Sequence record: OR621298 | Reading direction: 5' to 3' (one strand) | Length of the DNA: 64,000 bases | Origin: Escherichia phage vB_EcoD-Elw | In this document: one piece after another, positions 2,164-64,000 of the stretch | How the letters are laid out: each line of letters starts with the position of its first letter | Numbering within the stretch: position 1 is the stretch's first letter | Notes under the pieces: model-generated | What the model was told of the DNA's origin: nothing | The model's input: only the letters and a program-made list of their open reading frames with translations | Database searches by the model: none | Translations under genes and position numbers: made by a program

Positions 2164-2170
2164 GCTAATC

Positions 2171-2203: not shown

Positions 2204-2205
2204 AT

Positions 2206-2234
2206 TTGCTTTCAGCCAAAAATTTATATATAAT
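2206..2234 (+). promoter_or_regulatory. early sigma70 promoter with conserved leader
   Basis: TTGCTT 2206-2211 and TATAAT 2229-2234, 17-bp spacer; leader ataaatttgagaggag precedes the ATG. Confidence 0.7.
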
Positions 2235-2262
2235 AGATTTATAAATTTGAGAGGAGAAAGAT

Positions 2263-3849: not shown

Positions 3850-4022
3850 TTAAATCTGTGTATACACACCCTGATGATATATTTGTATGGGCGGACGGTA
3901 GTTGGTGTTATCGCTGTGAGTTGTGGGAAATGGACTATAAATCCGATGACTATGGTGTTATATATGTGGATACGGTTGAGTATGATACGTTCTTAGAAAG
4001 GAACAAAAATGGAAATAAGTAA
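3840..4022 (+). CDS. hypothetical small protein
   Basis: 60-aa ORF, coupled starts. Confidence 0.3.
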   Translation: MSIIKSVYTHPDDIFVWADGSWCYRCELWEMDYKSDDYGVIYVDTVEYDTFLERNKNGNK

Positions 4023-4515: not shown

Positions 4516-4517
4516 AT

Positions 4518-4946: not shown

Positions 4947-4955
4947 GGGGGCATA

Positions 4956-5348
4956 ATGGAACAAGTATATTGGCGTCAGATTGATCCTAGTTTGGTGAAG
5001 CGTGCGGAGAAGCTGCTACAACGTTGGTTGGTGGTAAGACAAGTCTCCTTCACTTTTCCGGAGCAGCAAACGGATGATCCATGCATTGGCGTTTTCCTGT
5101 CTGGATATGCCGGGGAATGGGAATTGGATTGGAATGAATTGTCTGCTATGGGCTTGATTGTTGCCCTAAACTTCTCTATATTCCATCCACGTGGTTTGGC
5201 CATATGTCGTGTGCCTGATGACGGTTGTTCGCCCCATCTTTTACAGGTGGAAGATGATATTTGGGAGTACACTCCAGATATTCTCGCAGAAGCTAAAGAA
5301 CAATTAAATCGTGTTGGGATTTATGTTCCGGGCTTAAATGATGGATGA
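4956..5348 (+). CDS. hypothetical protein, tandem paralogue B
   Basis: 130 aa; DDPCIGVF, ELSAMGLIVALNF and IYVPGLN motifs parallel the preceding ORF. Confidence 0.5.
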   Translation: MEQVYWRQIDPSLVKRAEKLLQRWLVVRQVSFTFPEQQTDDPCIGVFLSGYAGEWELDWNELSAMGLIVALNFSIFHPRGLAICRVPDDGCSPHLLQVEDDIWEYTPDILAEAKEQLNRVGIYVPGLNDG

Positions 5349-5439
5349 TTTTTATTAGCTAAACTCTGATTACCGAGTCATTTTGGCTCGGTTTTATCCG
5401 TACTTAAGACCAATGATAGCACCATCCGGAAAATTTTAC

Positions 5440-5468
5440 TTGCATGATGCCCAAAATCTTGATATAAT
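5440..5468 (+). promoter_or_regulatory. early sigma70 promoter with conserved leader
   Basis: TTGCAT 5440-5445 and TATAAT 5463-5468, 17-bp spacer; leader tatttatattgaattgagag. Confidence 0.6.
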
Positions 5469-5965
5469 ATTTATATTGAATTGAGAGACATTAGTAAAAA
5501 TTGATTTTGCTAATTTTTCTTGTTTACAATCCGCGATACGGAACAGTTAGGCTGCCCCATTAAGGGTTGTTTTAACTATTACTAGTGTTTATATTGCATT
5601 AGTTAATCTTCAATTAAGTGATCTGTGTACCCTGAATTCGGAAAGGTAAATCCAAACCGTGCATATTTAGCTCGTTATATAGGCAGAGTTTTATATGGGG
5701 GTGCGAACGAAAAGAGCAGCGAATGGCGGCACGTACAGTAGTCACCTACCAATAGGATAGTGAGGACAAATAGAATCGGCTTAGCGGCCAATGACCTAGG
5801 TTCTATTCTGTATATGAGCGAAGAGAGCACAGCACTGAGATATGATAACTTATTCATATTGCTTGATGATAATTAATGTTTACGTAAATAGTAGTAATAG
5901 TTGTTCTATTCTTTCTGAATAGTCCTAAAGAAAAGATTTCGATTAACCAACACAGGAGTATTGTT

Positions 5966-8755
5966 GTGTTTTCTATTCTCCAAGGTCACGCCGGATTTTC
6001 TCGTGATTTAGCAACAGGTATTTGGCGAGAAATCAAAGCGGAAGATTATACCTTTGCCAAGCGATTCTCGAAAAAGCATCCAGAAGGTAAACCAGCTTCT
6101 ATGCCCTTCAAATTTGATGTAATAGAAGAGCATGACCCGCAAAGCCTTGCCGAAATGTTACCACTTATGAGACGTTTAACGTCTGACCCTCATATCGTTG
6201 CGGTACGAGGTCGATGTCTTGCACCTAAAAATAACGTGCGACGTAAGAAAGGTAACTTTAATGTATCTAATCCTAGTAATATTATTGCTATGGACGTGGA
6301 TGGTATCCTAGATACCGGTGGGTATGACAAGTTTAACCTTGTTGGTATGGCCCGCCACATTATTAAGATGTTGAATAGTATTAGTGAGGACATGTTCCCT
6401 CTTGATGCAGGCTTTATAGCTCATGCATCGTCTTCGGCTGGGCTTAAACCAGGTATCCGAATGCACTTAATGCTAGAATCTAACGTCAAGGTAACTCAGG
6501 GTCAGTTAAAGTTCTTATTTACATCTATCAACGATAGTAGTAAGCAAAAATTTGGTTTTGATATTGCCGACTTAGCTTATTATTCATCTGTCCAGCTCCA
6601 CTATTTTGCCGACCCCTTATTTAGTGATGGTATTGTTGATCCGTTTAAAGCGGAGAGTAAGCCACGTCTGGTGTATGTTAAAGGTTCGAAAGTAAATTTG
6701 CCCAATAATCTGGTTGACTATGAAACAACTAGAGGGGAGTTTAAGGAAGAGTTTTATTCTTTACTTGATCAAATTAAAGGCAAAAAGATCGCGTCTGATA
6801 AAGTAGAAGAAACCATCAGCGAATTGGAAGAAGCTGAGGATGGGGTGTACCTGCGTATTATCCCCAAACTATACCATAGAGCATTAGAGGATGGTGTTGA
6901 TTTTGCATGGCTAGAACGTGAGATTAAACCCGCTTTATCTGAATATATTGCAACTAAAGATAACAGTCGTAATATTCAAGATTACTTTAATAACGGTCGT
7001 AAGCAGGCTCTCAAAGCGTTTGTTAATAATTCTAAACGTGAGATTCCATTAAATCTGAAAGGTGTTCCGCTCAAGAAGTTAGAAGTGGATTCTCCACCAG
7101 AAGTTCCGTACCTGAAGATTAACATTGTGCCTCCAAAAGGCCATATAACATTTGTTAAGGCAAGTCTTGGTACTGGTAAAACTACGGCAGTAACTAAATG
7201 GCTGGACGCAGGTGTTCTTCCTGGCAACTTTTTAGCAGTTACAAATACTAGAGCACTGGTATCTTCAAACGCTAAGAAATTTAGCGCAGGACAATATGAT
7301 AAGTCTGTAGATATGCTCAACTTTAAACGTGGAGCTATTGATCGTATGTCCACAACTATTCACTCTTTGCATAAGTTCAAAAGTTTTATTGGTCAAATAG
7401 ATACCATTTTTATTGATGAATGTGATGCTGTAATGAATGATCTATTATTCGCACCTGTTGTTAAGCAACGTCGCGAATGTATTCAAGTTCTACGTGACAT
7501 CCTCATGACAGCTAAAACTGTAATTCTATCAGATGGTGATATTAGTGCCGAAACTATTGAAGCATATGGTTCTCTAATTGATTTTGATAAACCAGTAGCA
7601 TTTTATAATCATCACCGTAAGATGCTGTCAAAAGCTCATGCTTATGAGTTCCCGGATGAGTCCAGTATTTGGGTTGCACTTCAGACTTCTCTAGAGATGG
7701 GTGAGAAATCTATCCTAGTATCTGATTGTGGGCCGGATGAACTGAATGAGAAGGGCATGGCGTTGCGTCGTAATACGGGTGCATTAGTTAAGGAAATCCA
7801 CTCAAACTCTACGTCTGATGTAGATATTAGACGTATTCTGGATTACACAACTAATGAGCTAATTGACCAACAAATTGATTGCTTATTATGTAGTCCATCT
7901 GTAACGAGTGGTGTTGACTTTAACTATTTTGATAACGTATTCGTTATCACTAGAACTAGCAACCAAGCGCCAAACATGCGTTTCCAAGCAATCAGGCGCG
8001 ACCGTGGTGCTCAGAATATCTATTATTTTATTGATAAATCCACTAGTGGGTTCTCCGCAGGTTCTGAACAATATAATATTGATGAAGGTTGGCTGGAGTT
8101 AGCACAGCAATTATACGCACGTCGCAGAGAACTAGAATCTAGGAACTATACTAGTACTTTACGTTATTACTTGCTTGATCAGGGTGCAACTATTGATATT
8201 TTCAGCGAAAGCTGGGGAACTATTGAAGGTGCTGGTAAAGAATACACAGAAGAGCGAATCAAAGCTATCCTACATTCAACTCCGGATTACTGTGCACCAC
8301 GTCATGCGGATGCGTATGAGGCTAAACTACTTCTTGTTCGCTATTATCATCTTGAGTCTATTAAAGATGTAACAGTTGAGCATGTTGAACAATATATCAA
8401 AGATAAACCGAATGATCGAGCTGCATTCTTCCATAAGATGCACGAGATGTTCTGGGAAGATATTAAGAAGTGTTCAAATGTGACCATTAAACCATTCATA
8501 GAGGCTCTGAAAGGTAAGAAGAAAGACTTCTTCCTTAAAACAGGTCAGAGTGCTAACCCAAAATATGCTAGAATGTATCTTGGTATGATGGGTATTGGTA
8601 AGGATATGAACACTGAAAATATTGTAGACTGGTACAGAACCTATTGTAAAATCGAGTGTATGCCAATCCCATATAAGTTTATGACTGATGAGGAGAAACA
8701 TATGCATGATGAAGCAATGGCAGAGCTAGGTGCTAGAAATGACAGTGAAGAATAA
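5966..8755 (+). CDS. P-loop NTPase, putative helicase or replication-initiation ATPase
   Basis: 929 aa; Walker A SLGTGKTTAV and DEAD-like IFIDECD; GTG start with AGGAG RBS. Confidence 0.55.
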   Translation: MFSILQGHAGFSRDLATGIWREIKAEDYTFAKRFSKKHPEGKPASMPFKFDVIEEHDPQSLAEMLPLMRRLTSDPHIVAVRGRCLAPKNNVRRKKGNFNVSNPSNIIAMDVDGILDTGGYDKFNLVGMARHIIKMLNSISEDMFPLDAGFIAHASSSAGLKPGIRMHLMLESNVKVTQGQLKFLFTSINDSSKQKFGFDIADLAYYSSVQLHYFADPLFSDGIVDPFKAESKPRLVYVKGSKVNLPNNLVDYETTRGEFKEEFYSLLDQIKGKKIASDKVEETISELEEAEDGVYLRIIPKLYHRALEDGVDFAWLEREIKPALSEYIATKDNSRNIQDYFNNGRKQALKAFVNNSKREIPLNLKGVPLKKLEVDSPPEVPYLKINIVPPKGHITFVKASLGTGKTTAVTKWLDAGVLPGNFLAVTNTRALVSSNAKKFSAGQYDKSVDMLNFKRGAIDRMSTTIHSLHKFKSFIGQIDTIFIDECDAVMNDLLFAPVVKQRRECIQVLRDILMTAKTVILSDGDISAETIEAYGSLIDFDKPVAFYNHHRKMLSKAHAYEFPDESSIWVALQTSLEMGEKSILVSDCGPDELNEKGMALRRNTGALVKEIHSNSTSDVDIRRILDYTTNELIDQQIDCLLCSPSVTSGVDFNYFDNVFVITRTSNQAPNMRFQAIRRDRGAQNIYYFIDKSTSGFSAGSEQYNIDEGWLELAQQLYARRRELESRNYTSTLRYYLLDQGATIDIFSESWGTIEGAGKEYTEERIKAILHSTPDYCAPRHADAYEAKLLLVRYYHLESIKDVTVEHVEQYIKDKPNDRAAFFHKMHEMFWEDIKKCSNVTIKPFIEALKGKKKDFFLKTGQSANPKYARMYLGMMGIGKDMNTENIVDWYRTYCKIECMPIPYKFMTDEEKHMHDEAMAELGARNDSEE

Positions 8756-8972
8756 AAAATGGGAAACAAGGAAGTTCCCAGTAAAAGAACGTAAAGTTCC
8801 TGTTTATGATACTTCGGAAAAGCTATGTAGGGTGGTACCACGTAGATTAGCTGGTATCCCTAACATATCCGAGTGGTTACTTAAACAACGGAAAACAAAC
8901 GTGTCTCTTCGCATCGGCTTTGAATTAGATAAAGTCTATGCTGAACTTGCTTCTTTGCTCAAGGAATCGTAA
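8730..8972 (+). CDS. hypothetical small basic protein
   Basis: 80-aa ORF overlapping the preceding stop. Confidence 0.3.
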   Translation: MLEMTVKNKKWETRKFPVKERKVPVYDTSEKLCRVVPRRLAGIPNISEWLLKQRKTNVSLRIGFELDKVYAELASLLKES

Positions 8973-8980
8973 AAATTTAT

Positions 8981-9009
8981 TTGCTTTCAGGAAAAATTTT
9001 CTGTATAAT
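8981..9009 (+). promoter_or_regulatory. early sigma70 promoter with conserved leader
   Basis: TTGCTT 8981-8986 and TATAAT 9004-9009, 17-bp spacer; leader ataaatttgagagaggag. Confidence 0.7.
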
Positions 9010-9040
9010 AGATTCATAAATTTGAGAGAGGAGTTTAAAT

Positions 9041-9745
9041 ATGGCCGGTTCTCGCAGAAAGAAACATATCCATGAAATCCCGGATGAAGTCTTTAAAAAA
9101 GTTATAGAGCATCTGGAGAACGGTGGTACTAAGAAAGCAGCTTGTGAGATGCTCGGCGTATCATCCAATCCAACTATGGAAAGGATGATTGAAGAGTGGC
9201 AAGACCGCCAGATTCAAGTTGCCGAAATGAAGAAAAAGAAACGTGGCACACTCATTGAAGGTATTGAGTTGGCCAACGTTATTGAACAGTATTTATCTGG
9301 TGATTCTTTTGAAGAGATTGCCGATCGTAATTATCGCTCTGTAGCAATGGTTAAATCTGTTCTGGAACGCTATGGTGCTCTGCTTCGTTTGAACGATATT
9401 GTAGACCCGTTGAATCCTCCTATTATTCCTGATGATGCTGTAGCAGAAGAATTTGAAGTTGGTGAGCTTGTTTGGGTTCCTGGATACCAGTGTATCGGTG
9501 AAATCAAAAAAGCAATGGATAATCCTGTTGGTTGCTACCGTGTATGGCTTCTATCGGAAGGCAAACAACAGAACGTTCATTATATGAATTATGAGCTGGC
9601 TTCTGTTAAACACCTGGAAAAGTTAGGAGTTGATGTAAAATCTCTGGGGTATAAATGGACTCGGGAAGAAGTCATTACGTTGATTAACGAAGCTGTTAAG
9701 GCCGCCTTGAAACTTGATAAAGAAAAAGGAAAACGCCGTGAGTAG
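9041..9745 (+). CDS. putative HTH DNA-binding early protein
   Basis: 234 aa; N-terminal HTH-like segment GGTKKAACEMLGVSSNPTMERM. Confidence 0.45.
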   Translation: MAGSRRKKHIHEIPDEVFKKVIEHLENGGTKKAACEMLGVSSNPTMERMIEEWQDRQIQVAEMKKKKRGTLIEGIELANVIEQYLSGDSFEEIADRNYRSVAMVKSVLERYGALLRLNDIVDPLNPPIIPDDAVAEEFEVGELVWVPGYQCIGEIKKAMDNPVGCYRVWLLSEGKQQNVHYMNYELASVKHLEKLGVDVKSLGYKWTREEVITLINEAVKAALKLDKEKGKRRE

Positions 9746-9989
9746 ACTAACTGATTTACTTAAAGATGGGGAAGTAAAAACACTATATCGTAGAAGCTGG
9801 GGTAACGATAATAACGGCTTAGTATTACTAACTTTAGATGCTGACTCGGATGTAGCTACTCAGCATACCTGGGTAGCCGGTAACTATCCATATAGCGAGG
9901 TTGTTTCATTAACAGTATGCGAAGCTATTGCAGACGATTGGGAGGTTGCCAGCATCGAGGATATGCTCGCTGTTGGCCTGGTGGAGTAA
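9714..9989 (+). CDS. hypothetical protein
   Basis: 91-aa ORF. Confidence 0.4.
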   Translation: MIKKKENAVSRLTDLLKDGEVKTLYRRSWGNDNNGLVLLTLDADSDVATQHTWVAGNYPYSEVVSLTVCEAIADDWEVASIEDMLAVGLVE

Positions 9990-10006
9990 CTACTTAAAAA
10001 TTTCAG

Positions 10007-10035
10007 TTGCTTAATCCTATAATTCTTGATATAAT
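10007..10035 (+). promoter_or_regulatory. early sigma70 promoter
   Basis: TTGCTT 10007-10012 and TATAAT 10030-10035, 17-bp spacer. Confidence 0.6.
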
Positions 10036-10092
10036 ATTCTCATAGTTTGAAAGAACTATTCTGTTTAATTCTTAATTAAGGAAATATAAAAT

Positions 10093-10503
10093 ATGACTAC
10101 TCCAACTCAGTGGACTGATGAACTGTTCGAAAAAATGTCTTCCGAATACGTTGCTCGTATGGAGCAATTCCCAGAGGATGAACGTCCTGGTGTTAGCATG
10201 GAAATTGTTAGCGAAATTGCCCAGGAAAATGGTGTAACTCCGAACGGTTTTCGTATGAAGCTAACTAAAGCAGGTTTGTACATCAAGAAAGCTGCTGGCT
10301 CTGCTTCTAAATCTAGTGCATCTACTGGAGAAAAAGCTTCTGGTGGTTCTCGCACTTCTAAAGCTAAAGCTCATGCCGACCTTCGTTCCGCATTCTCTGA
10401 TGCTGGCCTAGCACCAGATTTTCTGGATGATGCAATTATTGACAAACTGACCGGTAAAGCGGCTGCTCATCTGGCAGAAGCAATCCGAGCTATCACTAAG
10501 TAA
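10093..10503 (+). CDS. hypothetical Ala/Ser-rich early protein
   Basis: 136 aa; host-optimal codons suggest high expression. Confidence 0.5.
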   Translation: MTTPTQWTDELFEKMSSEYVARMEQFPEDERPGVSMEIVSEIAQENGVTPNGFRMKLTKAGLYIKKAAGSASKSSASTGEKASGGSRTSKAKAHADLRSAFSDAGLAPDFLDDAIIDKLTGKAAAHLAEAIRAITK

Positions 10504-54023: not shown

Positions 54024-54174
54024 TTTGACTTTTGCCAAATTTCATAAGATTACACATGGAGGTGTGTCCACTGGCTGGCTAGATGAGAATGAGTCTCATT
54101 ACCGCCCGGTACTTAGCAGGCTAATAGTCACGGCATGTTATCATTACACACCGTGACTATTTCAACTTTAATTA

Positions 54175-54909
54175 TTACGCAACTTTTAATTTCTCAATAT
54201 ATTGTTGCGGGCTGCAACTATATTCTGCGCGTTCTTCCTCGGTCATACTTTCCCAACATAATTGCAGGCGGTCGGCTAGGAACTGATAATCATTATCATC
54301 CTCAAGAGATTCATCAATAAAGGTTTCACCTATCAATGTAACCCCAATCGATAGAATATCGTTAACGGCTTGCGCGTCCAGCGTTTTAAATCCGTATGAT
54401 GCCGCCGCTGATAGCACGCCTTTATGATCATCAATCATCGTGAAATCAGCGTTCGGATATAATTGTTTAAATAACTCAAAGTAATGGCTTTTATAAATAG
54501 CGTCTTTGCTGTGGTATATCTCGCTAACTTTATCAGCCTCAAAATATTTGTGTAGTGTATCGCGGGAAAATACACGGATATTACTATCCCCACGCCCTCG
54601 CAATCCTTGTTTGCGCAAATAATAATAATCCGACTTGCTCATTAGTCGAGCGGTGCAAATAATGTTTAACGTGTTAACGTCATTCATACATTGGCGCATA
54701 TATGTAACAAGGGGCAATAGTGTATCTTGCATTATTAAATCATGTTTGCAGGCTTCATTTTTATACTTATTTAAATCTAAATTGCCCTCGCTATCAAAGC
54801 AAGGCGCTACGCGATGGAAAGAATTAATGATAGTGCCGTCCAGATCCCAAATCATGACGCGGGAAATATGCGGGAAATTACGGGTAATATTCGTTTTAAC
54901 TTGATTCAT
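54175..54909 (-). CDS. dmp: HAD-family 5'-deoxyribonucleotidase (dmp-like)
   Basis: 244 aa; HAD motif I WDLDGTII and C-terminal MIDDHKG; first gene of the pre-early block. Confidence 0.7.
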   Translation of the reverse strand: MNQVKTNITRNFPHISRVMIWDLDGTIINSFHRVAPCFDSEGNLDLNKYKNEACKHDLIMQDTLLPLVTYMRQCMNDVNTLNIICTARLMSKSDYYYLRKQGLRGRGDSNIRVFSRDTLHKYFEADKVSEIYHSKDAIYKSHYFELFKQLYPNADFTMIDDHKGVLSAAASYGFKTLDAQAVNDILSIGVTLIGETFIDESLEDDNDYQFLADRLQLCWESMTEEERAEYSCSPQQYIEKLKVA

Positions 54910-54989
54910 TTTGTTACGTTCTCCATTTAAGGGATTAGATTAATTCAGCATTACCCGCTATTTATAAGCGGGTAATAATAAATTAACTA

Positions 54990-55382
54990 TTAAAGACCAT
55001 ACGCCAACGCATCAGCAATAAAACTAATATCTTCACCAGATACACCGGAACGAATGCCCGCGCAGGTATATACCTTTGCGCTGGTCAATTGATCATCGAG
55101 GCAAGCGGGGCAAGGCGCGACAACTGCAAAGGCTAGGCCGGATTTTACGGCGTCGATGATAATCGTTTCTTGTTTCACAGTGTCAACATAAACACCTTTT
55201 GCTTTAATATGGCTAGTTAGTTTACCTTGCGTATAGGCAAAGGTAGTAACCTGCAAAGCGTCGTTAAAGTCCAATAGCTCATCAATAACGTGCCCCGCCT
55301 CGACGTGGTAACGTTCACCATTAGAATAAACCAGAACAATGGAAGATTGAGCGCGATCGAATGGGATATTTTGCTTTTTCAT
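54990..55382 (-). CDS. hypothetical pre-early protein
   Basis: 130-aa ORF. Confidence 0.45.
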   Translation of the reverse strand: MKKQNIPFDRAQSSIVLVYSNGERYHVEAGHVIDELLDFNDALQVTTFAYTQGKLTSHIKAKGVYVDTVKQETIIIDAVKSGLAFAVVAPCPACLDDQLTSAKVYTCAGIRSGVSGEDISFIADALAYGL

Positions 55383-55422
55383 ATTTATAAAACTCCAATT
55401 AATTTAATAAAGGGTATTTAAT

Positions 55423-55680
55423 TTACTTGATAATAATCTGCATTTGATACGGCGTTAATTCACCATTTACGGGTAAATTATTATCGCTTAGCCACTCATA
55501 AAAAGCGTCATCATCGTCAAAAGGGATAATATCATTATCACGATAATCGACCGTAATAATCCCATCCGTATTAGTTTTGGCGGCTAGGATAGGCCCGAAG
55601 CTGTAAACTTTATCGGATTCCATTTCATCCGGTGAAATAAATGCTTTTTCGTCCAGCGTTTTGGGTAATGTAACTTTCAT
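55423..55680 (-). CDS. hypothetical acidic pre-early protein
   Basis: 85-aa ORF. Confidence 0.45.
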   Translation of the reverse strand: MKVTLPKTLDEKAFISPDEMESDKVYSFGPILAAKTNTDGIITVDYRDNDIIPFDDDDAFYEWLSDNNLPVNGELTPYQMQIIIK

Positions 55681-55736
55681 TCTAATTTAGCTCCTATAAT
55701 AGCGGCTATATTTCAAGCCGCTAGGGTATTAATTAT

Positions 55737-57401
55737 TTACGCAAAAAATTTACCGTTCTTAAAATCGATCAAAGTACGCTGACCATTTGCATAGGTAATT
55801 AAATGCGTTTGTGTCCAGCTTGACGCGCCAACGTTGTAACCCATGTCCAGACTACCAGCCACGCCAGCGGTATATACCCCGCCGTAAATGCTGGCGGTAT
55901 GAGTGTGCCCCGTGTTTAATTTGCCCAATTTCTTAAACTGTTTCGGATTGCCACGGCTGCCGTTTATGCCATTGTGACCGTGTACGCCGCATTCAATGCC
56001 TGCAATTTTAAATGATTGGTCAGTCGTTAGGAAAATGGCGTTAAACTCGCAACCTGCAACCTTACGCAGCGCATAATCTAGCACGTTGAAAGTATCGTCT
56101 TTTTCTGCAATAGCTCCGTAAATCGCGGCATTCAGGCGGTGATATAGTTCCGCGTTCGCTGGGTCGTCTTTAATGTTAGCATTACGATCATCAAGCCAAC
56201 GGGATAGCGCCAAATCGTGATTCGATTCAACAATGATTGTTTGCGAGAAATCGCGCTCCATTGATTCCAGTACGCGCCCCGTATCGATGAGATCATCCAG
56301 AACTTTATCACGTCCGGCGGCGTATTGTTTTGCTAGGAATACACCCGAAGCGCGGTTGTGATGGTTGCGTGATGTAAAATCGTGAACGTCATGGATAAAC
56401 TGATATTTTGGTTTAAGAATATCAAGCAAGCTATTTTCGCCAGCCCATGACGCAATGGCACAATCATCATCAAGTTTTTCGGCGTGTATGTCGCCATATT
56501 GCAAGCCTAAAACATGCCCCGATGTTTCATAGCATCCGGCGGGAGTAGCGCAAACATTCAGATCATAAAACACCCCGCTTTCGTCCATTGTTTCAAGCTG
56601 GCGAACAAAAAACTCACCGTCTTCGTCGAACTCAACAATCAGCGCACCGAAGTTATGCAGTGCTTCCGCTTTCTGTCCTGCTTTCTGCTGGATGTAATTT
56701 TTAAGCGTTGCCGTGCCAGTTGAATACATGCGGCGCACTACTTCACCTTTTAAAGCTGGCACGCTTTCGGCGGTGATTTTAGCGTGACCAATTGCCAGAC
56801 CTTCCAGATTAAGCGCGGTTGCAGTTTCAGCGAATCCAGAAAGCGGATAATCTGCGGTGGGCAAAACATTAATTTCAGCCATGAAAGCAAAACGGCGATT
56901 ATTCAAAAACACGTTTTTGCTGCAAATATATTTATCGAACGCGGAATCATATTTTATTCCATCCGCGCCCTCGCCATTTTGGAATCCGTTTTTATTATAA
57001 ATATACTTGCTAACCAGCAAATCAGCGCCGATATATTTAGCAAATTGCTCCAGTGAGGCTAAAAAGTTTTTATGCGGGAACGTATTATTCTGAATCGATG
57101 TAATAATAAAGCGTTTGCCTTGTTTTACTTCCCAGCTTTCCACCGTGCTAGAAACAATCCCCGCCGCTTCTGGGCGCTCATCGTTTTTAATGGCTTTTGC
57201 TACTTTCGCCGCTTTCGGTTTCGCTGGTTTATTTGCTTCCAGCCAATCACAAATAGCGGTGGAATGTTTTGGAGTATCGTAAACCGCTTTTGATATATCG
57301 TCACAAACTTCCAATTTAGTGGCGCGCAGGCGTTTACCGTAGAAATTAAAGTCAGCGGCCATTTTCAGGATAACGGTTTGTTTTTCTGCGGAAATAATCA
57401 T
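55737..57401 (-). CDS. A1: A1-like pre-early protein, metallophosphoesterase-fold nuclease
   Basis: 554 aa; calcineurin-like motifs GDIH, ESNHD, HGH, GHTH; size close to the 556 aa I recall for T5 A1. Confidence 0.7.
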   Translation of the reverse strand: MIISAEKQTVILKMAADFNFYGKRLRATKLEVCDDISKAVYDTPKHSTAICDWLEANKPAKPKAAKVAKAIKNDERPEAAGIVSSTVESWEVKQGKRFIITSIQNNTFPHKNFLASLEQFAKYIGADLLVSKYIYNKNGFQNGEGADGIKYDSAFDKYICSKNVFLNNRRFAFMAEINVLPTADYPLSGFAETATALNLEGLAIGHAKITAESVPALKGEVVRRMYSTGTATLKNYIQQKAGQKAEALHNFGALIVEFDEDGEFFVRQLETMDESGVFYDLNVCATPAGCYETSGHVLGLQYGDIHAEKLDDDCAIASWAGENSLLDILKPKYQFIHDVHDFTSRNHHNRASGVFLAKQYAAGRDKVLDDLIDTGRVLESMERDFSQTIIVESNHDLALSRWLDDRNANIKDDPANAELYHRLNAAIYGAIAEKDDTFNVLDYALRKVAGCEFNAIFLTTDQSFKIAGIECGVHGHNGINGSRGNPKQFKKLGKLNTGHTHTASIYGGVYTAGVAGSLDMGYNVGASSWTQTHLITYANGQRTLIDFKNGKFFA

Positions 57402-57442
57402 AGTAATAAAACTCCATTAAAGGGATTAAAAAACGTTTGTTA

Positions 57443-57486
57443 TTGGCAAATATTGCCAAATATAACGCCTATTATTTGAGGCGTTA
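57443..57486. promoter_or_regulatory. two palindromes upstream of the A1-like gene
   Basis: ttggcaa-ata-ttgccaa (57443-57459) and taacgcct-8nt-aggcgtta (57463-57486). Confidence 0.4.
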
Positions 57487-57498
57487 TAATTTGCAACA

Positions 57499-57744
57499 TT
57501 AATTTAAAGGCATAAGGCTAGAACTAACACCACAAACAACGGCGGCAATAAAACAAATCAGACCTAAACGCTTTGCTAACTTAGATTTACGTTTAAAATA
57601 ATATGAATCTAAATCATTTTGAAAATAAGCGAATAGTAATGAGGCCGCCATAATAAATAAGCCTAGAATTAAGGATTCAGTAGGGTAAAAGATCATTTTA
57701 ATAACTCCAGTCAAAGGGAAATTATAGTGGGGAATATTCCCCAC
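57499..57744 (-). CDS. small two-helix membrane protein
   Basis: 81 aa with two hydrophobic segments. Confidence 0.45.
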   Translation of the reverse strand: MGNIPHYNFPLTGVIKMIFYPTESLILGLFIMAASLLFAYFQNDLDSYYFKRKSKLAKRLGLICFIAAVVCGVSSSLMPLN

Positions 57745-57753
57745 TAATTAAAT

Positions 57754-58170
57754 TTATTCGCCTGCGGCTTGTTTCACTTCATCGGCAACGCCTAACAGTT
57801 GCGCCACGGCGTCCAGCGTTTCCAGTTTTGCGCTTTCCAGTGATGCCAGATCGTCGGCGTCTTTGATAATGCCGGAATCGATAGCGTGTTTTGCAATAAC
57901 GCGCACATAATGCGCTTTGCGGATTGAGCTACCGCCGCCAACTTTGCGCGGCTTATCGCTTTTCTGATACGCTTTTGCGCTGGTCAATTTTGAGCGAACG
58001 GACACGGGGGAGGCCGCGCCAACTGCTTTTGCAATCTCTTTCAGGCCGTCGCTATTTGCGAAATCTAAACCGTTTTCATTAATTAACTGCTGGTACATGG
58101 TAACAGCTTTTTGGGTGTTTTCTTCATTCCATGCAAATTTTGCGGATTTTTCGGTTTTAACGTTAGCCAT
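57754..58170 (-). CDS. A2-like pre-early protein (putative)
   Basis: 138 aa; position directly upstream of A1; assignment by synteny only. Confidence 0.4.
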   Translation of the reverse strand: MANVKTEKSAKFAWNEENTQKAVTMYQQLINENGLDFANSDGLKEIAKAVGAASPVSVRSKLTSAKAYQKSDKPRKVGGGSSIRKAHYVRVIAKHAIDSGIIKDADDLASLESAKLETLDAVAQLLGVADEVKQAAGE

Positions 58171-58269
58171 GATTGTAGCTCCTATTAGTTTAATTTAAGG
58201 GATAAGATTAACATAATGTTAATCGTTATATCCCCCGAACTACTAGGGGGATATAAAGTTAACACTAAA

Positions 58270-58521
58270 TTATAAAACAGCTTCCCATTTTTCGTTACGC
58301 TGGACAACCTTTACAACGTCGCCGGATTTAACGCGAACGCTAAAAACGGTTTTGCCGTTGTTACTCCGTTCCGTTTCAGCGTATACCGCGTCGATTGTAT
58401 CGAACGGCATAAGCGCCGCGCCTTTAATGCGTTCGGCCTTTCCGGTTAATTCATCCGTTTTAGTAACGAAAGGAATAAAAACGGATTGACCAACTTTCGG
58501 CGCGGTAATAACGTTTTGCAT
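58270..58521 (-). CDS. hypothetical pre-early protein
   Basis: 83-aa ORF with AGGAG RBS. Confidence 0.45.
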   Translation of the reverse strand: MQNVITAPKVGQSVFIPFVTKTDELTGKAERIKGAALMPFDTIDAVYAETERSNNGKTVFSVRVKSGDVVKVVQRNEKWEAVL

Positions 58522-58556
58522 AATATAAACTCCTAGTTATTTGGGGATTGTTCCGC

Positions 58557-58586
58557 ATTACCTGCTAGAAAGTAACAGCAGGTAAT
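58557..58586. promoter_or_regulatory. palindrome upstream of the 83-aa ORF
   Basis: attacctgct-agaaagtaac-agcaggtaat, perfect 10-bp arms, no U-tract. Confidence 0.4.
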
Positions 58587-58719
58587 AAGTAACAATCCGC
58601 TCGCCAATATAATCAATTTAAAGAACTCCACGCAGGCCGCTATATCCCAGTTAGGGGGCGGGGCACATTATGGTAAGTGCCGACCGTCAAATTTTATCAA
58701 GTTATCGCTCTTATCGAAC

Positions 58720-58744
58720 TGGGTACATCTTAAAGCCTATCGGC
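58720..58744. repeat. 25-bp perfect inverted repeat, copy A
   Basis: tgggtacatcttaaagcctatcggc; exact reverse complement of 58988-59012. Confidence 0.85.
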
Positions 58745-58751
58745 TAGGGTG

Positions 58752-58955
58752 TCAAACAATTTTTTGCAGTTTTTTATGATTTTCTTTTAAGTCAATCATA
58801 ATATTACGCCAGATCATTTCCAGACCTTGCTGGCGGCCTTTCTTGTACTGCTTAAATCGATATTTTACCGATCTTTGCGCTACTGTCAACAAATTTTTTG
58901 TTTTGCTGTCCAGTGCCTTGCTAGGTTTACCAGTGATCAATAAAGTTTGTTTCAT
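58752..58955 (-). CDS. small basic protein enclosed by the 25-bp inverted repeats
   Basis: 67 aa, Lys/Arg-rich; ATGA-type overlap with the upstream ORF. Confidence 0.4.
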   Translation of the reverse strand: MKQTLLITGKPSKALDSKTKNLLTVAQRSVKYRFKQYKKGRQQGLEMIWRNIMIDLKENHKKLQKIV

Positions 58956-59242
58956 ATCGTCGATTCCTTATAATGTATAAGTTTACCGCCGATAGGCTTT
59001 AAGATGTACCCAATTTTTAAAGAGCGCGGCGGTAAACTTCCCGCCGTGTAGTTCGTCATTGCCGCCCTACGAGATAAATAATAGGGGATTCCCGAAAATG
59101 GCGCAACCTTATTTTTGTAAAGAAATGTAAAGACAAACGCCACCGGACACCATGCGGCGACCGGGGCGCGGCGCATTAAAATTAAAAGAAACGGGCGCGC
59201 GAATACCATAAAACCCAGCAGGTTGGCAAGTAATTTTTTCAT
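58952..59242 (-). CDS. hypothetical protein with N-terminal hydrophobic segment (doubtful)
   Basis: 96-aa ORF; weak RBS; its coding sequence contains inverted-repeat copy B. Confidence 0.3.
   Translation of the reverse strand: MKKLLANLLGFMVFARPFLLILMRRAPVAAWCPVAFVFTFLYKNKVAPFSGIPYYLSRRAAMTNYTAGSLPPRSLKIGYILKPIGGKLIHYKESTI
58988..59012. repeat. 25-bp perfect inverted repeat, copy B, with nested local stem
   Basis: gccgataggctttaagatgtaccca; flanked by gtttaccgcc (58981-58990) and ggcggtaaac (59028-59037). Confidence 0.85.
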
Positions 59243-59411
59243 TTATATTTGCCTTGCCCTACTTGACAAAACTTAAAAAGCTCGTGGTAGCGATAAACGA
59301 GGGTAGGCAATGCAATGGCATGGCTAAAACTTTCATCGCGTTCTAGGGCGTTTTAGGCGCATTCTAGCCTTGTTGATAACTTATCCCCAAAAGCAAAAAT
59401 GAAATTTTCCT

Positions 59412-59448
59412 AGTTATCCACTTGACTTTTATTTTCCAGTGGATAACT
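59412..59448. promoter_or_regulatory. inverted pair of DnaA-box-like sites
   Basis: agttatccac-17bp-gtggataact; each half is TTATCCACt, one mismatch from the consensus TTATCCACA. Confidence 0.5.
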
Positions 59449-59594
59449 ACTTATTTTATGAAATAAATTAATTGACTTTTATTTGTTAGTATGCATCGGA
59501 AGAATAGCAGACTAATAATTACTAGAATAATAATCATGCTGGTGGATTGTAACGGCCTAAACTATCAGCAGACTATTAATCACGAAAAATCTCG

Positions 59595-59625
59595 TTAGCT
59601 AACTAACTATTTCATGATGTATAAT
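59595..59625 (+). promoter_or_regulatory. candidate sigma70 promoter with early-type leader
   Basis: TATAAT at 59620-59625 followed by atacatataaatt, as in the early promoters; -35 weak. Confidence 0.35.
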
Positions 59626-59741
59626 ATACATATAAATTAATGAGAAATAATAATTATAATAAATAATAACTACAGTAAATAATAACTATAAGAAACTATC
59701 GGCCTAAGTGAGAACCACTATCATTTAAGTTATACACAAAG

Positions 59742-59811
59742 TTATCCACAGCACTTTTTGACTTTACACGATAGGCGGCGATATAAGGACTTTTACACAG
59801 ACTTATCCACA
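59742..59811 (+). promoter_or_regulatory. two consensus DnaA boxes bracketing a candidate promoter
   Basis: TTATCCACA at 59742-59750 and 59803-59811; TTGACT 59758-59763 and TATAAG 59782-59787 lie between them. Confidence 0.5.
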
Positions 59812-60104
59812 GGTTATTCCACTGTATAAATATACAGGGTAAAAAGGTAGTGTTAACAACTGCAATCAATTTTAAGCGGCTTAAATCGCATTCTAACGAG
59901 CTAAACGCTGCGGGGTAATATTAAAGTAAAGCCTTAATGCGTCACCCTGGTGGCTTCGCCGTGGTTTGCTCTTTATTGCACCGCTGCGCGGTTAGCATAA
60001 AAATAGGCGCTAGGCAAGGAAAATAAAAAGGTAAAATAATATTTGCCTATGCTAGAAATTTACCTTTATCATTCACTCACCGATTAACGAGGGAGGCCGA
60101 ACAA

Positions 60105-61115
60105 ATGAGGCTTTATAAACCTGATAATGCCACCGTTTTAAAAGGTGCATTGCGCAACCTGCTGGATGGTAGCAAGTCAACCAGCATTAAACATTTTATT
60201 AACAAGATTGAAACTATTCATCAAAACTTTTTTGATGATTATGACGCTTATGATATGGATAGTTTTCTACCCTTATATAGACAAGGGGCAACGCTAGTTT
60301 TATATAATCGGGATTGCCATATCTTTACAGGCAGGGGAGCGGGGCCGGATACCGATTTTATTGTTGCGCAGGGTAATAATATTGTTGCGTATCATAGCAA
60401 TTCAGGCCGTCAATCATTTAATATAAATAGTTTTGAGCTTATTGGACTTGATCTGATAAATGGACTTTCTAGCATTGAGGGATTTTTAGATGTTATCTGG
60501 AAGTATTTACCCGCTGGATGGCATAAGCCGGATAACGACGGATCTCAATATACCGGTATAATGGCTTTTGATGGCGACGGTAATTTTTTGTTACCACGGG
60601 AGCTATACCCATATATTTATGATGGGGATATAGAAAGCGCTGGTTTTTCTTTCTGGAAAGATGAAGATCAGATTATTGACAGCGTAGAAAACCATGCTGT
60701 AAATTCTAACACTCAAAGCGTTAACACTCAAACTACTGAAAACAAAGGAAAAAACACTATGACCAAGATTGCTAACATCGTTGCCGCTAATAAATCCGCC
60801 GTTGTAAATGCTGCAAAACTGGAAGCGGGTAAAATTGCACTGACTCAAATTACGAAAGTAGCGGCTAAAAAAGCACCGTTTATGATTAAAGGTTATATTG
60901 ATACACCTATCGGTCGAGTAGTGATTGCCAACCTGCTGGGCGTAGCGGTTGACCAGTACGCCACAAGTAACCAAAAGGCGAAAGCGGTGGCAGGTGCAGC
61001 TATGGAAGCGGCTATGTTAGAAATGGTGCAAAGTTTTAACATCGCTGAGATGATTGATGAAATGGTAAAAGGTATTGATATTTCTACTTTTACCACTAGC
61101 ACCGAAAGCGAGTAA
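60105..61115 (+). CDS. hypothetical pre-early protein
   Basis: 336 aa; first gene of the rightward cassette; GGGAGG RBS. Confidence 0.55.
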   Translation: MRLYKPDNATVLKGALRNLLDGSKSTSIKHFINKIETIHQNFFDDYDAYDMDSFLPLYRQGATLVLYNRDCHIFTGRGAGPDTDFIVAQGNNIVAYHSNSGRQSFNINSFELIGLDLINGLSSIEGFLDVIWKYLPAGWHKPDNDGSQYTGIMAFDGDGNFLLPRELYPYIYDGDIESAGFSFWKDEDQIIDSVENHAVNSNTQSVNTQTTENKGKNTMTKIANIVAANKSAVVNAAKLEAGKIALTQITKVAAKKAPFMIKGYIDTPIGRVVIANLLGVAVDQYATSNQKAKAVAGAAMEAAMLEMVQSFNIAEMIDEMVKGIDISTFTTSTESE

Positions 61116-61180
61116 TAATATTAAGCGGGGATTGTTACCCCGCTTTACTATTCCCTTGTTAACTAATAGGAGGCTAATAA

Positions 61181-61675
61181 ATGGCTGATGAAAAATATGG
61201 CTTCTCACTGGGAGAAGTGAGCACGGCAAAACATGATATGATCATTTTGGTCGATTGTCATACTGGCTATTGCGGGGAAGGGAACACCGAGGAATATTTT
61301 GTTCCTGCTGGTACGGATCTGGACGCTTTCGCTCAGGAAATGGCTATTGATAATGCTTCTCGTTTTGGTAGCGATGGTTACGAAGACGAAGAAACTGGCG
61401 AATGGTATGAAAATGAAAACGTATATGCAAGCCTTTATCATTATCAATTAAGTAAATCCGGCACATATGTAAACGGCGGCGATCCTATTAATTCCGTCAT
61501 GAGATTAATTATTAAATATGGCGGCGTCGAGATAGTTGGTAACAAAGCGGTAATATACGCAAATCGATTAAAACAGCTTGTTTATATTCCTGATAGTACC
61601 CGATGGGATGAATATGCTGTTTTGCATGACGAATTGAAACGATGTTTCAATATTGAATCCTTACAAGTAGTCTAA
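61181..61675 (+). CDS. hypothetical strongly acidic pre-early protein
   Basis: 164 aa, about 29 Asp+Glu versus 11 Lys+Arg; AGGAGG RBS. Confidence 0.55.
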   Translation: MADEKYGFSLGEVSTAKHDMIILVDCHTGYCGEGNTEEYFVPAGTDLDAFAQEMAIDNASRFGSDGYEDEETGEWYENENVYASLYHYQLSKSGTYVNGGDPINSVMRLIIKYGGVEIVGNKAVIYANRLKQLVYIPDSTRWDEYAVLHDELKRCFNIESLQVV

Positions 61676-61780
61676 TGTAAAGTTTTGTAAAGGTCGCCTT
61701 TTATGGTGGCCTTTTTTGTTATAATGCCTTTACACCGTTTGAGGACGGTTGAAAATTTTCCCAAAAATTGGAGGCTTAAA

Positions 61781-62011
61781 ATGGTTGCTTATTCTTCTGC
61801 TAGTCATCTGTTCACCGCTCAAGGCTGGGTATCTAACCGCGTTATTATTCACGAAATGGTGCAAGAATATGGCATTGCTAAAACATACAATACCATTCAG
61901 GCGCTTTATGATAATGATCAAATCGATCAGCAAACGGCGGGCTTTTTGCTGGATACCCTGAAAGCAGAACATTGCACCAAAAAACAAGCGGCTAAAATTG
62001 TTTTAATGTAA
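61781..62011 (+). CDS. hypothetical small protein
   Basis: ATG at 61781 with GGAGG RBS; the ORF track starts further upstream. Confidence 0.45.
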   Translation: MVAYSSASHLFTAQGWVSNRVIIHEMVQEYGIAKTYNTIQALYDNDQIDQQTAGFLLDTLKAEHCTKKQAAKIVLM

Positions 62012-62052
62012 TTAATAACGGGGCGTTATTTTCGCCCCACTAACTAGGGGGA

Positions 62053-62208
62053 ATGAAAATGGTTATTTTTCGAGCTATTTTAGCGGGTATCTTGGGCGCT
62101 ATTTTATCGTTGTTTGCAATAGCTTTCGGCGTTCACGCGGTTATTATTGGCGCGGGTATCGCTGCATTTTCTTATCTGCTGGGCTGCATGACTAGTAAAG
62201 GAGAATAA
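62053..62208 (+). CDS. small hydrophobic membrane protein, 51 aa (not in ORF track)
   Basis: ATG 62053; MKMVIFRAILAGILGAILSLFAIAFGVHAVIIGAGIAAFSYLLGCMTSKGE. Confidence 0.4.
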   Translation: MKMVIFRAILAGILGAILSLFAIAFGVHAVIIGAGIAAFSYLLGCMTSKGE

Positions 62209-62210
62209 AA

Positions 62211-62423
62211 ATGATCCGCAATGTTTCCCTTGCCCGTTCGAAAGGCTTTAAGCTGGTGGATGTTAACACGTTCGAGCGTGAAGATTGTAAAATCGAATAT
62301 GTAGCACGTAATAAGAATGCCTTTCGTGTTACAGAAAAGAAATTTGACAAGCGCGGCAACGTGATCGCTGAAACGGTTAAACACTTTGCCACCTTTTACG
62401 CTGCGTTTCGTGGGGTGTTATAA
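62211..62423 (+). CDS. hypothetical small protein
   Basis: 70 aa; AAAGGAGAA RBS. Confidence 0.5.
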   Translation: MIRNVSLARSKGFKLVDVNTFEREDCKIEYVARNKNAFRVTEKKFDKRGNVIAETVKHFATFYAAFRGVL

Positions 62424-62424
62424 A

Positions 62425-62769
62425 ATGGTTATTTATGAGGGCAACCGCTTTGTTGCTAATTGCCGCCCTGCATTGCTAGCAAATTACTTAAATCAGCTTT
62501 CACCAGCTTATAAGGGCGTTATTAATATTTATGAAGGCAAGGCGCATTATAAAATCAATGCGGTCGTTGCCCGTGAACTAGCGTTTCAATTTTTGACCTT
62601 TGCATCTTGTGACGTTCAGGTCATGGGTGAAGCGTTAATTGCAGAAAATGAAGATGATTTTATTAATATTTTTCGCAAGATATGCACCGAGCGCCTGATA
62701 ATGAAAGGCGCTTATATTCAATCCACTGCGGATAGTATTGAAACAGCGTTTCGAAAGGTGGCGCAATGA
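62425..62769 (+). CDS. hypothetical protein
   Basis: Start placed at ATG 62425, just after the upstream stop. Confidence 0.45.
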   Translation: MVIYEGNRFVANCRPALLANYLNQLSPAYKGVINIYEGKAHYKINAVVARELAFQFLTFASCDVQVMGEALIAENEDDFINIFRKICTERLIMKGAYIQSTADSIETAFRKVAQ

Positions 62770-62969
62770 GCAATAAAATTGTTGTAACCAAAATCAGTAC
62801 AATGGTTGATGTTTTTTACGTGCCCGATACGCCGGAAAACCGGCAAGCGGTCGAGCGTGGCGAGTATGATAAAGTGATTTATGATCACGATGGTTATTAT
62901 CAGCATTTGGTCGATTCCTATGGGGAAGAGGAAAAGATCACGCATCAATTACCGGAGGATGGTTTATGA
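62766..62969 (+). CDS. hypothetical small acidic protein
   Basis: 67 aa; overlapping start and stop. Confidence 0.45.
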   Translation: MSNKIVVTKISTMVDVFYVPDTPENRQAVERGEYDKVIYDHDGYYQHLVDSYGEEEKITHQLPEDGL

Positions 62970-63221
62970 AACGATGGTTTAATCACTGGTATAAGCGGTT
63001 TTTAGTACGCCGTCGCAAATCTAGACATCAAGATGAGTGGCGGGAGTGGGCAAAGCGTAACGGTTGCCCGCTACTCTGAGAACGACGGGGATTAGCTCCC
63101 CGTTTTTCCATGCCTCCAGTTAAATACCCCCTTGTTTTAGTATCCCCACCAAAATTAAACGCGTTAGAATGCGATCTAGGACGTTTTAGCGGTATATTAG
63201 AATTATTCACTACATAGGAAT

Positions 63222-63332
63222 ACTGTATATTTATACAGTAGGATAAGCTGTGGATAAGTCTGTTAATAACGCCTCAAAATGGCTAGGATTCTGTCAAGTC
63301 AAATCGTGCTGTTAATAAGTCTGTGGATAACT
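63222..63332. promoter_or_regulatory. DnaA boxes (inverted orientation) and palindrome
   Basis: TGTGGATAA at 63249-63257 and 63322-63330; palindrome actgtata-tt-tatacagt at 63222-63239. Confidence 0.55.
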
Positions 63333-63344
63333 TAAATAATAGTG

Positions 63345-63506
63345 TTTCTCACTTCCATTCTTAAATGCAAATCATTATCATTCGCATTTCACTTTCTAAA
63401 TGAGAATCATTTCACTTCTTGAATAGTTCTCATTTCACTTTTTAAATGCGAATTATTATCATTCTCATTTCGCTTTTTAAATGATTCTTATTATCATTCG
63501 CATTCA
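63345..63506. repeat. five degenerate ~30-bp direct repeats
   Basis: Units of form tt(t/c)tTAAATG(c/a)gAAT(t/c)ATTATCATTCGCATTTCAC, imperfect, no unique spacers. Confidence 0.7.
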
Positions 63507-63509
63507 GGC

Positions 63510-63536
63510 GCGCAGGGCAATTGCCCTGCGCTTTTG
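63510..63536 (+). terminator. GC-rich palindrome with T-tract
   Basis: gcgcagggc-aatt-gccctgcgc followed by tttt. Confidence 0.45.
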
Positions 63537-63757
63537 TGCAAATCCGACATTGCTCCACGGGTGTTACGTGCGGGCGTGTATGTGCGAATCCGACAATTTT
63601 TGGTAGTGTGCAAATCCGACCCGAAAAATTTTTATAGTGTGCAAATCCGACAATGAATTTTCCCAAAAACTCCAGCAATCCGATGCTGCGCATCAATCCT
63701 GTGGAATTAGCTAGAATATGTGCAAATCCGACATGGGTTTATTTGTGCGAATCCGAC
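63536..63757. repeat. six direct 13-bp iterons GTGC(A/G)AATCCGAC
   Basis: Copies at 63536, 63582, 63608, 63639, 63720 and 63745, same orientation; degenerate copy near 63674. Confidence 0.75.
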
Positions 63758-64000
63758 AAGATTTTTGTGACTTTGATTGGAGGGTGTGTGATTGTATGGG
63801 TTTGAGGAGAAGATGAGAGAGCGAGAAAAATTTGAGGGAACTGTGAGAGGGGCGCAGGATTGGTGCGGAGCACCTGATTTGCGGGGATTTTGGGGAAGAG
63901 TTGAGATAATTTGGGAAGATTTGGGATAGGTGCAGATAAAGTAAAATTTTATTAGCAAAACGAGGCAAAATAGCTTGACAAGTGAAAATTTCTGTGGCTC

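Follow-up and report, generated by a model that had tools for sequence, protein, structure and literature searches.

The T5-type pre-early right operon of Escherichia phage vB_EcoD-Elw and the poor fit of its two acidic proteins to DNA-mimic anti-restriction

The insensitivity of T5-like phages to restriction enzymes and CRISPR after entry of the first 8% of their DNA has been a question since 1979, and the answer presumably lies among the small pre-early genes. Tequintaviruses such as T5 show broad insensitivity to type I–III restriction-modification systems unless sites lie in the first-step-transfer (FST) DNA; Epseptimaviruses are restriction-sensitive (PMC10644984). Here, we describe positions 59243–62969 of a 64,000-nucleotide (nt) sequence from Escherichia phage vB_EcoD-Elw (record OR621298), the whole of which is called the window throughout. 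A sequence-only reading had proposed the small pre-early open reading frames (ORFs) of this interval as host-takeover or anti-defence factors, and had likened two acidic ones, encoding 164 and 67 amino acids (aa), to DNA-mimic anti-restriction proteins. The explanation that we favor, with good confidence in it as a whole, is that the interval holds the right operon of a T5-type pre-early block, that its genes are accessory takeover effectors, and that the acidic proteins are not the determinant of restriction insensitivity.

T5's pre-early genes have been screened twice. Mahata et al. (2021) cloned 13 of them and found 008, 011 and 015 to be toxic to E. coli; the 015 product binds Ung and nicks DNA containing deoxyuridine monophosphate (dUMP) at the resulting apurinic or apyrimidinic (AP) sites. 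In the study by Annor et al. (2026), where the full set of 17 genes was cloned, dmp, A1, hdi, hegG, 011, 013 and 015 were toxic. In that work, expression of 011 led to uneven nucleoids, the wild-type gene being too toxic to clone, while 013, which has two transmembrane segments, caused membrane damage and a lysis-like loss of integrity. T5.012, T5.014 and T5.017 were non-toxic and dispensable in the T5 screens, and a T5 deleted from hegG through 017 was viable on the laboratory host, with smaller plaques (Annor et al. 2026). Only A1 and A2 are required in T5 for second-step transfer and a productive cycle, and CRISPRi-ART likewise found only A1 and A2 to be important (plus dmp, as cited by Annor). 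When the Tequintavirus Bas33 is blocked after first-step transfer, RNA-seq shows transcripts of the orthologous genes.

The interval in vB_EcoD-Elw is almost certainly the right operon of such a block, located in a Tequintavirus terminal repeat and having host takeover as its general role. Window positions 54156–64000 are collinear with T5 105–10219, and the end of the window coincides exactly with that of the T5 terminal repeat. Since 54 kb of genome precede the block and its end matches T5 10219, it represents the right-hand copy of the repeat, located at the end of the genome. Over its full length the interval is ~93% identical in nucleotides to ECOP18, oldekolle and MM-1, its best matches, all of them Tequintavirus; in total, 440 phage records were matched. 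Bas31 (DaisyDussoix), a Tequintavirus that has the 164-aa gene, also aligns with the entire interval. The annotations of T5 (NC_005859), MM-1 and oldekolle agree on the identity of the block. The interval consists of a divergent control region and a rightward operon, both within the long terminal repeat, that is, FST DNA. The operon has the divergent promoter region on one side and the injection-stop repeats on the other, and is equivalent to T5.011–T5.017 (NC_005859 6495–9157), with the T5 orthologues collinear and their order unchanged. Its genes are as follows, with identities to T5 at the amino acid level and, where given, the ratio of non-synonymous to synonymous substitution rates (dN/dS).

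60105–61115, + strand: 336 aa, T5.011 orthologue, DUF7566 family (90% identity; dN/dS 0.15).
61181–61675, + strand: 164 aa, acidic, no T5 orthologue; a small family found in Demerecviridae only.
61781–62011, + strand: 76 aa, T5.012 orthologue (88% identity; phrog_5145; dN/dS 0.15).
62059–62208, + strand: 49 aa, membrane protein, T5.013 orthologue (67% identity; phrog_5607; grand average of hydropathy 1.69).
62211–62423, + strand: 70 aa, basic, isoelectric point (pI) 10, T5.014 orthologue (100% identity).
62425–62769, + strand: 114 aa, T5.015 orthologue (93% identity; dN/dS 0.06).
62766–62969, + strand: 67 aa, acidic, T5.017 orthologue (87% identity; phrog_6973; dN/dS 0.19).
62966–63079, + strand: 37 aa, net charge +9, pI 11.6, ribosome-binding site GGAGG (86% identity to T5 9154–9264; dN/dS 0.23).

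Seven credible + strand genes thus lie inside the interval and an eighth, encoding 37 aa, lies just beyond it. A Shine-Dalgarno site precedes each of the eight, and each except the 37-aa ORF belongs to a PHROG family. Compared with T5 or close relatives, dN/dS values range from 0 to 0.30, and purifying selection acts throughout the eight genes. No PHROG family was found for the antisense ORFs. A 102-aa reading of the 76-aa gene, from 61703, was rejected: it has no ribosome-binding site, and GGAGG precedes the start at 61781 only. The count of at least a dozen small ORFs given in the sequence-only reading is correct for the whole pre-early block (~54.1–63.1 kb) but not for the interval. Of the several tiny membrane proteins that it mentioned, one is in the interval (62059–62208), and two more hydrophobic ORFs are in the leftward operon.

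Three of the products have orthologues with described effects on the cell. The 336-aa protein is a member of Pfam family DUF7566 (PF24450), which it matches over residues 2–336 with an E value of 3.4e-113 and 379 bits against a cut-off of 27; its AlphaFold2 (AF2) model is poor, with a predicted local distance difference test score (pLDDT) of 58. The T5.011 family to which it belongs is modular. The last ~125 aa, helices rich in Ala, Lys and Val, are nearly invariant in 34 homologues; the N-terminal domain is variable or replaced. My1_019 (9525–10487) is 53% identical over 110 aa to the C-terminal module of T5.011, and phrog_16673 has only this module in common with the family. The T5.011 orthologue of MM-1 (6026–7035) is annotated as two coding sequences, 6026–6805 and 6802–7035, and tblastn covers 76% of it in one frame; such a split in a highly toxic gene suggests a frameshift or a sequencing error. 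The 49-aa protein has two hydrophobic segments as well as homology to T5.013, features that place it in the membrane-damaging-peptide family. As in T5, the 011 product would disorganize the nucleoid, the 013 product would damage the membrane, and the 015 product would bind Ung and nick AP sites. Because in T5 the block is dispensable and three of its products attack the cell, the genes form a set of accessory host-takeover effectors. This bears out the proposal of host-takeover accessory genes in the pre-early region of a T5-like phage, with T5.011, T5.013 and T5.015 toxic, although for part of the block host takeover is already published knowledge. Orthologues with assigned functions exist for these ORFs and not for the two acidic ones. 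Likewise, the description of the ORFs as having no recognizable domain fails for the 336-aa and the 114-aa protein (DUF7566 and the T5.015 nickase family, respectively), while the acidic ORFs are indeed without a Pfam match.

The 114-aa protein requires comment, since annotation resources in wide use attach the nickase label to the wrong gene. An Ung-dependent nickase is assigned to the 70-aa protein by phrog_4227, by the RefSeq T5 record NC_005859 (T5.014) and by many pharokka-style records, whereas UniRef (“DNA-(apurinic or apyrimidinic site) endonuclease”) and Pfam (PF26847, Phage_T5_AP_Endonuclease) place the label on the 114-aa T5.015. A precomputed PF26847 match is present on a 114-aa family member in a relative phage. 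The protein that Mahata et al. (2021) cite as a homologue of 015, EFG4537521.1, was found by exact look-up to be the 114-aa protein, and the 114-aa ORF of the window is 93% identical to T5.015 over the full length. Judged by this homology, 62425–62769 is the orthologue of the Ung-binding AP-site nickase T5.015. The 70-aa protein had been a candidate for Mahata's 015 on the basis of accession numbering; the identity of EFG4537521.1 rules it out. Because another T5 record (UniRef Q5DMS9) calls the 70-aa protein “ORF015”, the slip looks like a mix-up between the ORF015 and T5.015 numberings. The 70-aa protein itself has exactly the sequence of T5.014: the two genes differ by 16 synonymous changes and by no non-synonymous one, which is the strongest constraint in the block. 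The misplaced label is widely propagated and misleads the choice of candidates from automatic annotations.

The longer of the two acidic proteins has no counterpart in T5. Its gene is within a clean 552-bp segment (61120–61671) that is missing from T5 (at T5 7509/7514), that has its own upstream hairpin, and that is followed just downstream by the T5-type terminator. Bas33 also lacks the gene and has 118 nt between its 011 and 012 orthologues. An ORF family with “no homolog in T5” had been recorded by Davison (2020) for My1, chee24, Shivani, EPS7 and Stitch; My1_018 is a member of the 164-aa family (39% identity over 100 aa, E value 2e-13), and the chee24 ORF is 93% identical to the 164-aa protein. 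The family is small, comprising 18 clusters among 5.8 billion proteins. A profile search of 1.84 billion representatives recovered 32 relatives, none with an informative domain; a few had weak zinc-ribbon matches to an insert. Family members occur in 346 phage records. At an identity of at least 60% the number is 245, compared with 442 records that have a Markadamsvirinae-grade A1, so that roughly half or more of the close relatives of T5 carry the gene.

The AF2 model of the 164-aa protein is confident (pLDDT 86.6, predicted template-modelling score 0.81), and an independent model of the Shivani protein in BFVD superposes on it with a template-modelling score of 0.95. The predicted structure appears to be an orphan α/β fold: a Foldseek search of BFVD with the model, at E <= 0.001, returned only uncharacterized or unnamed phage proteins, those with names coming from T5-like phages. 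The loops TGxCGE, NGGDP and RLKQLVYIP are conserved in the family. A variable acidic loop (residues 62–80 of the window protein) is the site of a CxxC...CxxC zinc-ribbon insertion in many relatives; the window protein has an Asp/Glu-rich linker there. As T5 has lost the gene, the family has escaped all T5-based studies of toxicity or deletion. The 164-aa protein might be the founding member of a new class of pre-early proteins that serve host takeover or anti-defence by neutralizing a conserved enterobacterial defence or DNA-metabolism protein, an idea that we regard as unlikely. If true, it could account for T5 and its relatives differing in their sensitivity to defences.

Next, we considered the distribution of both acidic genes across Demerecviridae. 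In My1 (Mccorquodalevirinae), only three right-operon families are kept: the T5.011 C-terminal module, the 164-aa family and T5.017. My1_018, the 164-aa family member, is immediately downstream of My1_019, which carries the T5.011 module, and My1_016 is a T5.017 homologue (51%). Sugarland keeps a T5.011-like gene (gp014) and a 164-aa-like gene (gp012). Between these two, gp013 (2866–3360) is an extra gene that also encodes 164 aa; despite the equal length, an hhalign comparison found it unrelated to the 164-aa family (probability 0.1). The T5.017 family comprises 30 clusters, and those with a source name are all from T5-like phages, Epseptimavirus included. The pattern in My1 and Sugarland places both acidic ORFs in the most widely kept part of an otherwise fluid operon, and such wide retention argues for a conserved, presumably host, target.

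The joint retention also raises a possible functional link between the T5.011 and 164-aa families, with the 164-aa protein as a partner that modulates, targets or neutralizes the toxic T5.011-family protein. A gene of the first family followed by one of the second is the order in Tequintavirus, Epseptimavirus and My1, and in Sugarland with one gene between them; of T5.011, My1 has just the invariant C-terminal module, and hardly any other gene of the right operon is found there; and the toxicity that prevented cloning of wild-type T5.011 would suit a need for such a partner. Nevertheless, we doubt this interpretation, since T5 and Bas33, which possess T5.011 but not the 164-aa gene, are fully viable, phage operons often keep their gene order without physical interaction between the products, and hhalign detected no relationship between the two families.

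We then compared the charge of the acidic proteins with that of known DNA mimics. The 164-aa protein has a net charge of −16 and a pI of 4.41, and the 67-aa protein a net charge of −8 and a pI of 4.52. Ranked by acidity per residue among 71 window ORFs, the 67-aa protein is second and the 164-aa protein fifth, at ~1.5–2 standard deviations below the mean. With −0.12 and −0.10 charges per residue, respectively, they are clearly acidic, as had been claimed, but not extreme. T7 Ocr has a value of about −0.24, and the acidic ORFs here reach about half of that or less. In the 164-aa protein, negative charge is concentrated in residues 33–80 (net −14). An 85-aa protein encoded on the − strand at 55423–55680, which the sequence-only reading did not flag, has an acidity per residue similar to that of the 67-aa ORF and the lowest pI of the pre-early proteins (4.05; net charge −10; phrog_8297). 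It occupies the T5.003 locus without being homologous to T5.003, which itself has no match in the window; the locus looks like an allelic accessory cassette.

Searches for relatives of known anti-restriction proteins were negative. In Pfam, at E <= 1, neither acidic ORF matched Ocr (PF08684), ArdA (PF07275) or any other family, and NCBIfam and PADLOC gave nothing above noise for either ORF. Sequence searches of the PDB with the 114-, 67- and 70-aa proteins and with both family profiles found no relatives. For the 164-aa protein, structure prediction yielded a confident model but no DNA-mimic match: the fold search returned no structural relative and no solved DNA mimic. The PARIS triggers of T5, Ptr1 and Ptr2, are acidic proteins that this system senses as it does Ocr; their genes, ORF094 and ORF103, are of the early class and are situated outside the terminal repeat. 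Escape selection against PARIS did not turn up the acidic ORFs of the pre-early block. Among the 268 anti-defence proteins catalogued in EVADES (2025), none is from a T5-like phage or from Demerecviridae, and neither an accessory-gene screen nor HIDEN-SEQ contains T5-like pre-early genes.

If one of the acidic genes conferred restriction insensitivity, it would be expected in insensitive phages and would be absent or different in sensitive ones. The distribution does not follow this expectation: T5 and Bas33 are without the 164-aa gene, and Epseptimavirus carries both. In Bas29, all right-operon genes but the 37-aa ORF have homologues, both acidic genes included, and the 164-aa gene is found in Bas27 as well. 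Between Tequintavirus and Epseptimavirus, divergence among the pre-early proteins is greatest for T5.011 (55%), T5.005 (35–42%) and the T5.009-like ORF, which is noted here as a lead only.

On this evidence, it is very unlikely that the acidic proteins are DNA mimics that occupy the sites of restriction enzymes, perhaps also of BREX or RecBCD, and thereby give restriction insensitivity. The idea draws on their second and fifth rank in acidity among the 71 ORFs, on their synthesis before the bulk of the genome enters, on the clustering of charge at residues 33–80 of the 164-aa protein, and on the restriction-insensitivity gene being thought to be FST-encoded and having been stated as unidentified as of 2023 (PMC10644984). 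The missing fold match is not decisive, because DNA mimics are diverse in fold. However, sequence families, the fold of the 164-aa protein, charge density and phyletic pattern all leave the DNA-mimic claim unsupported: there is no Ocr or ArdA match, the charge density is below half that of Ocr, restriction-insensitive T5 and Bas33 do without the 164-aa gene, restriction-sensitive Epseptimavirus phages have both genes, and the acidic T5 proteins that PARIS senses are early gene products from outside the block. As written, the suggestion adds no new handle on the restriction-insensitivity question.

The reading that we prefer is that the two acidic proteins, which we infer to be genuine, conserved pre-early proteins, are probably not the determinant of T5-type restriction insensitivity; some other anti-defence role may be compatible with the data. 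They would bind conserved host proteins stoichiometrically instead of mimicking DNA in the manner of Ocr or ArdA, a mechanism that we put forward only tentatively. Several points weigh against this reading. The experimental record of T5.012, T5.014 and T5.017 consists of toxicity and dispensability only. DNA mimics have no common fold, and mimicry is compatible with a negative fold search. The Epseptimavirus homologues (82%, 56% and 80% identity) need not be equivalent alleles, and in T5 insensitivity to restriction may have a redundant or multi-genic basis. The protein-binder idea is based on small size, acidity, conservation and the lack of enzyme-like relatives, and the TGxCGE and NGGDP loops and zinc-ribbon inserts could equally fit a ligand- or nucleic-acid-binding site.

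The operon is preceded by ~860 bp of non-coding control DNA and enclosed by repeats. The small ORFs of the control region have no ribosome-binding site and no PHROG family, and none is a credible gene; an Rfam search of the region gave no match above threshold. The hegG gene (T5.010) is absent, T5 5419–6098 (hegG) being replaced by window 59476–59707. The non-coding features of the interval and its right flank are as follows.

59243–60104, no strand: non-coding control DNA (~860 bp) between the two divergent pre-early operons.
59706–59852, no strand: left arm of an inverted repeat, 147 nt, with TTATCCACA DnaA-box-like motifs (repeat search; arms 76% complementary).
60043–60072, + strand: sigma70-type promoter-like site, TTGCCT-18-TATCAT, after an A/T-rich stretch (consensus scan and sequence).
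61123–61145, + strand: GC-rich hairpin between the T5.011-like and 164-aa genes, within the segment that T5 lacks.
61689–61714, + strand: terminator-like hairpin with a T-run; maps to T5 7534–7559, the terminator annotated after T5.011.
63208–63354, no strand: right arm of the inverted repeat, 147 nt, at the start of the repeat-rich injection-stop region.

The two 147-nt arms enclose the whole rightward operon; the equivalent T5 repeats are IRC-spacer-IRD and IRD'-spacer-IRC' (Davison 2020). The putative promoter maps to the one annotated 5' of T5.011 (T5 6411–6489). Pre-early timing of the rightward operon is suggested by this promoter-like site and, by analogy, by the FST-stage transcripts of the Bas33 orthologues. 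Downstream of the operon, 63346–63764 is dense in direct and inverted repeats, with 58-nt units in three copies and 30–31-nt units, sharing a GTGCRAATCCGAC core, in four to six copies; a strong terminator-like hairpin (63510–63531) lies within these repeats. They correspond to the injection-stop-signal region of T5 (iss, annotated at T5 9140–10149).

These repeats bear on the possibility that the acidic proteins serve the phage's own programme, for example the pause and restart of injection, pre-early shut-off or protection of the DNA from A1. The phenotypes assigned to the FST region outnumber its genes, the operon is flanked by DnaA-box inverted repeats implicated in the injection stop, and the T5.017 family is kept as far as My1. 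We nonetheless find a role of this kind improbable: second-step transfer and a productive cycle need only A1 and A2 in T5, CRISPRi-ART adds at most dmp to these two, and the whole right operon can be deleted with no more than a reduction in plaque size. Finally, it is barely credible that some of these small ORFs are not genes and arose by chance in AT-rich DNA, for although pharokka-style records such as that of MM-1 annotate many more tiny ORFs here and those in 59243–60104 are unsupported, the eight + strand ORFs have ribosome-binding sites, purifying selection and conserved families, and transcripts of their orthologues were detected in Bas33.

The leftward operon of the block has the following T5-like genes.

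54175–54909, − strand: dmp-like gene, leftward pre-early operon.
55737–57401, − strand: A1-like gene, leftward pre-early operon.
57754–58170, − strand: A2-like gene, leftward pre-early operon.
58752–58955, − strand: hdi-like gene, leftward pre-early operon.

GC skew is positive over the rightward operon and mostly slightly negative over the leftward one. At the far end of the rightward operon, the 37-aa ORF is rich in Trp and Arg, and its ATG overlaps the stop codon of the acidic 67-aa gene (ATGA). The ORF is conserved in T5 yet unannotated there; it is annotated in oldekolle and MM-1. From this arrangement, the acidic 67-aa and basic 37-aa proteins might be a translationally coupled pair that forms a complex.

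The block, its gene families and even exact proteins are already in public records: the exact 164-aa protein is on record in vB_EcoD-Elw, and the exact 114- and 67-aa proteins are in vB_EcoS_FFH_1. Modestly new are the poor fit of the acidic candidates, the misplacement of the nickase label in widely used resources, and the 164-aa orphan family as a conserved pre-early protein, with an orphan fold by its model, that is invisible to T5-centred work. For the restriction-insensitivity question, the field is narrowed, as the comparative data agree poorly with either of the two obvious acidic candidates.

Compared with known systems, the acidic proteins resemble Ocr and ArdA in their small size, their acidic character and their synthesis at the very onset of infection; they are unlike them in having no sequence match, in the lack of a fold match for the 164-aa protein, and in a charge density lower than that of Ocr. 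Ptr1 and Ptr2 are likewise small, highly acidic proteins of the T5 family and are not homologous to the acidic ORFs described here. The family that Davison noted through My1_018, Shivani and chee24 does not differ from the 164-aa family, which had therefore been noticed previously, though not characterized. For the 114-aa protein, the closest described system is T5.015, whose biochemistry is known for T5.015 itself and to which the window allele is likened by its sequence. The closest counterpart of the locus as a whole is the right operon of T5. The window differs from it by an additional gene, that of the 164-aa protein, located between the orthologues of 011 and 012, and by the lack of T5.016 and hegG, and shares with it the same place in the terminal repeat, the same strand, the layout of promoter and terminator, the flanking inverted repeats, and six orthologues with 67–100% amino acid identity.

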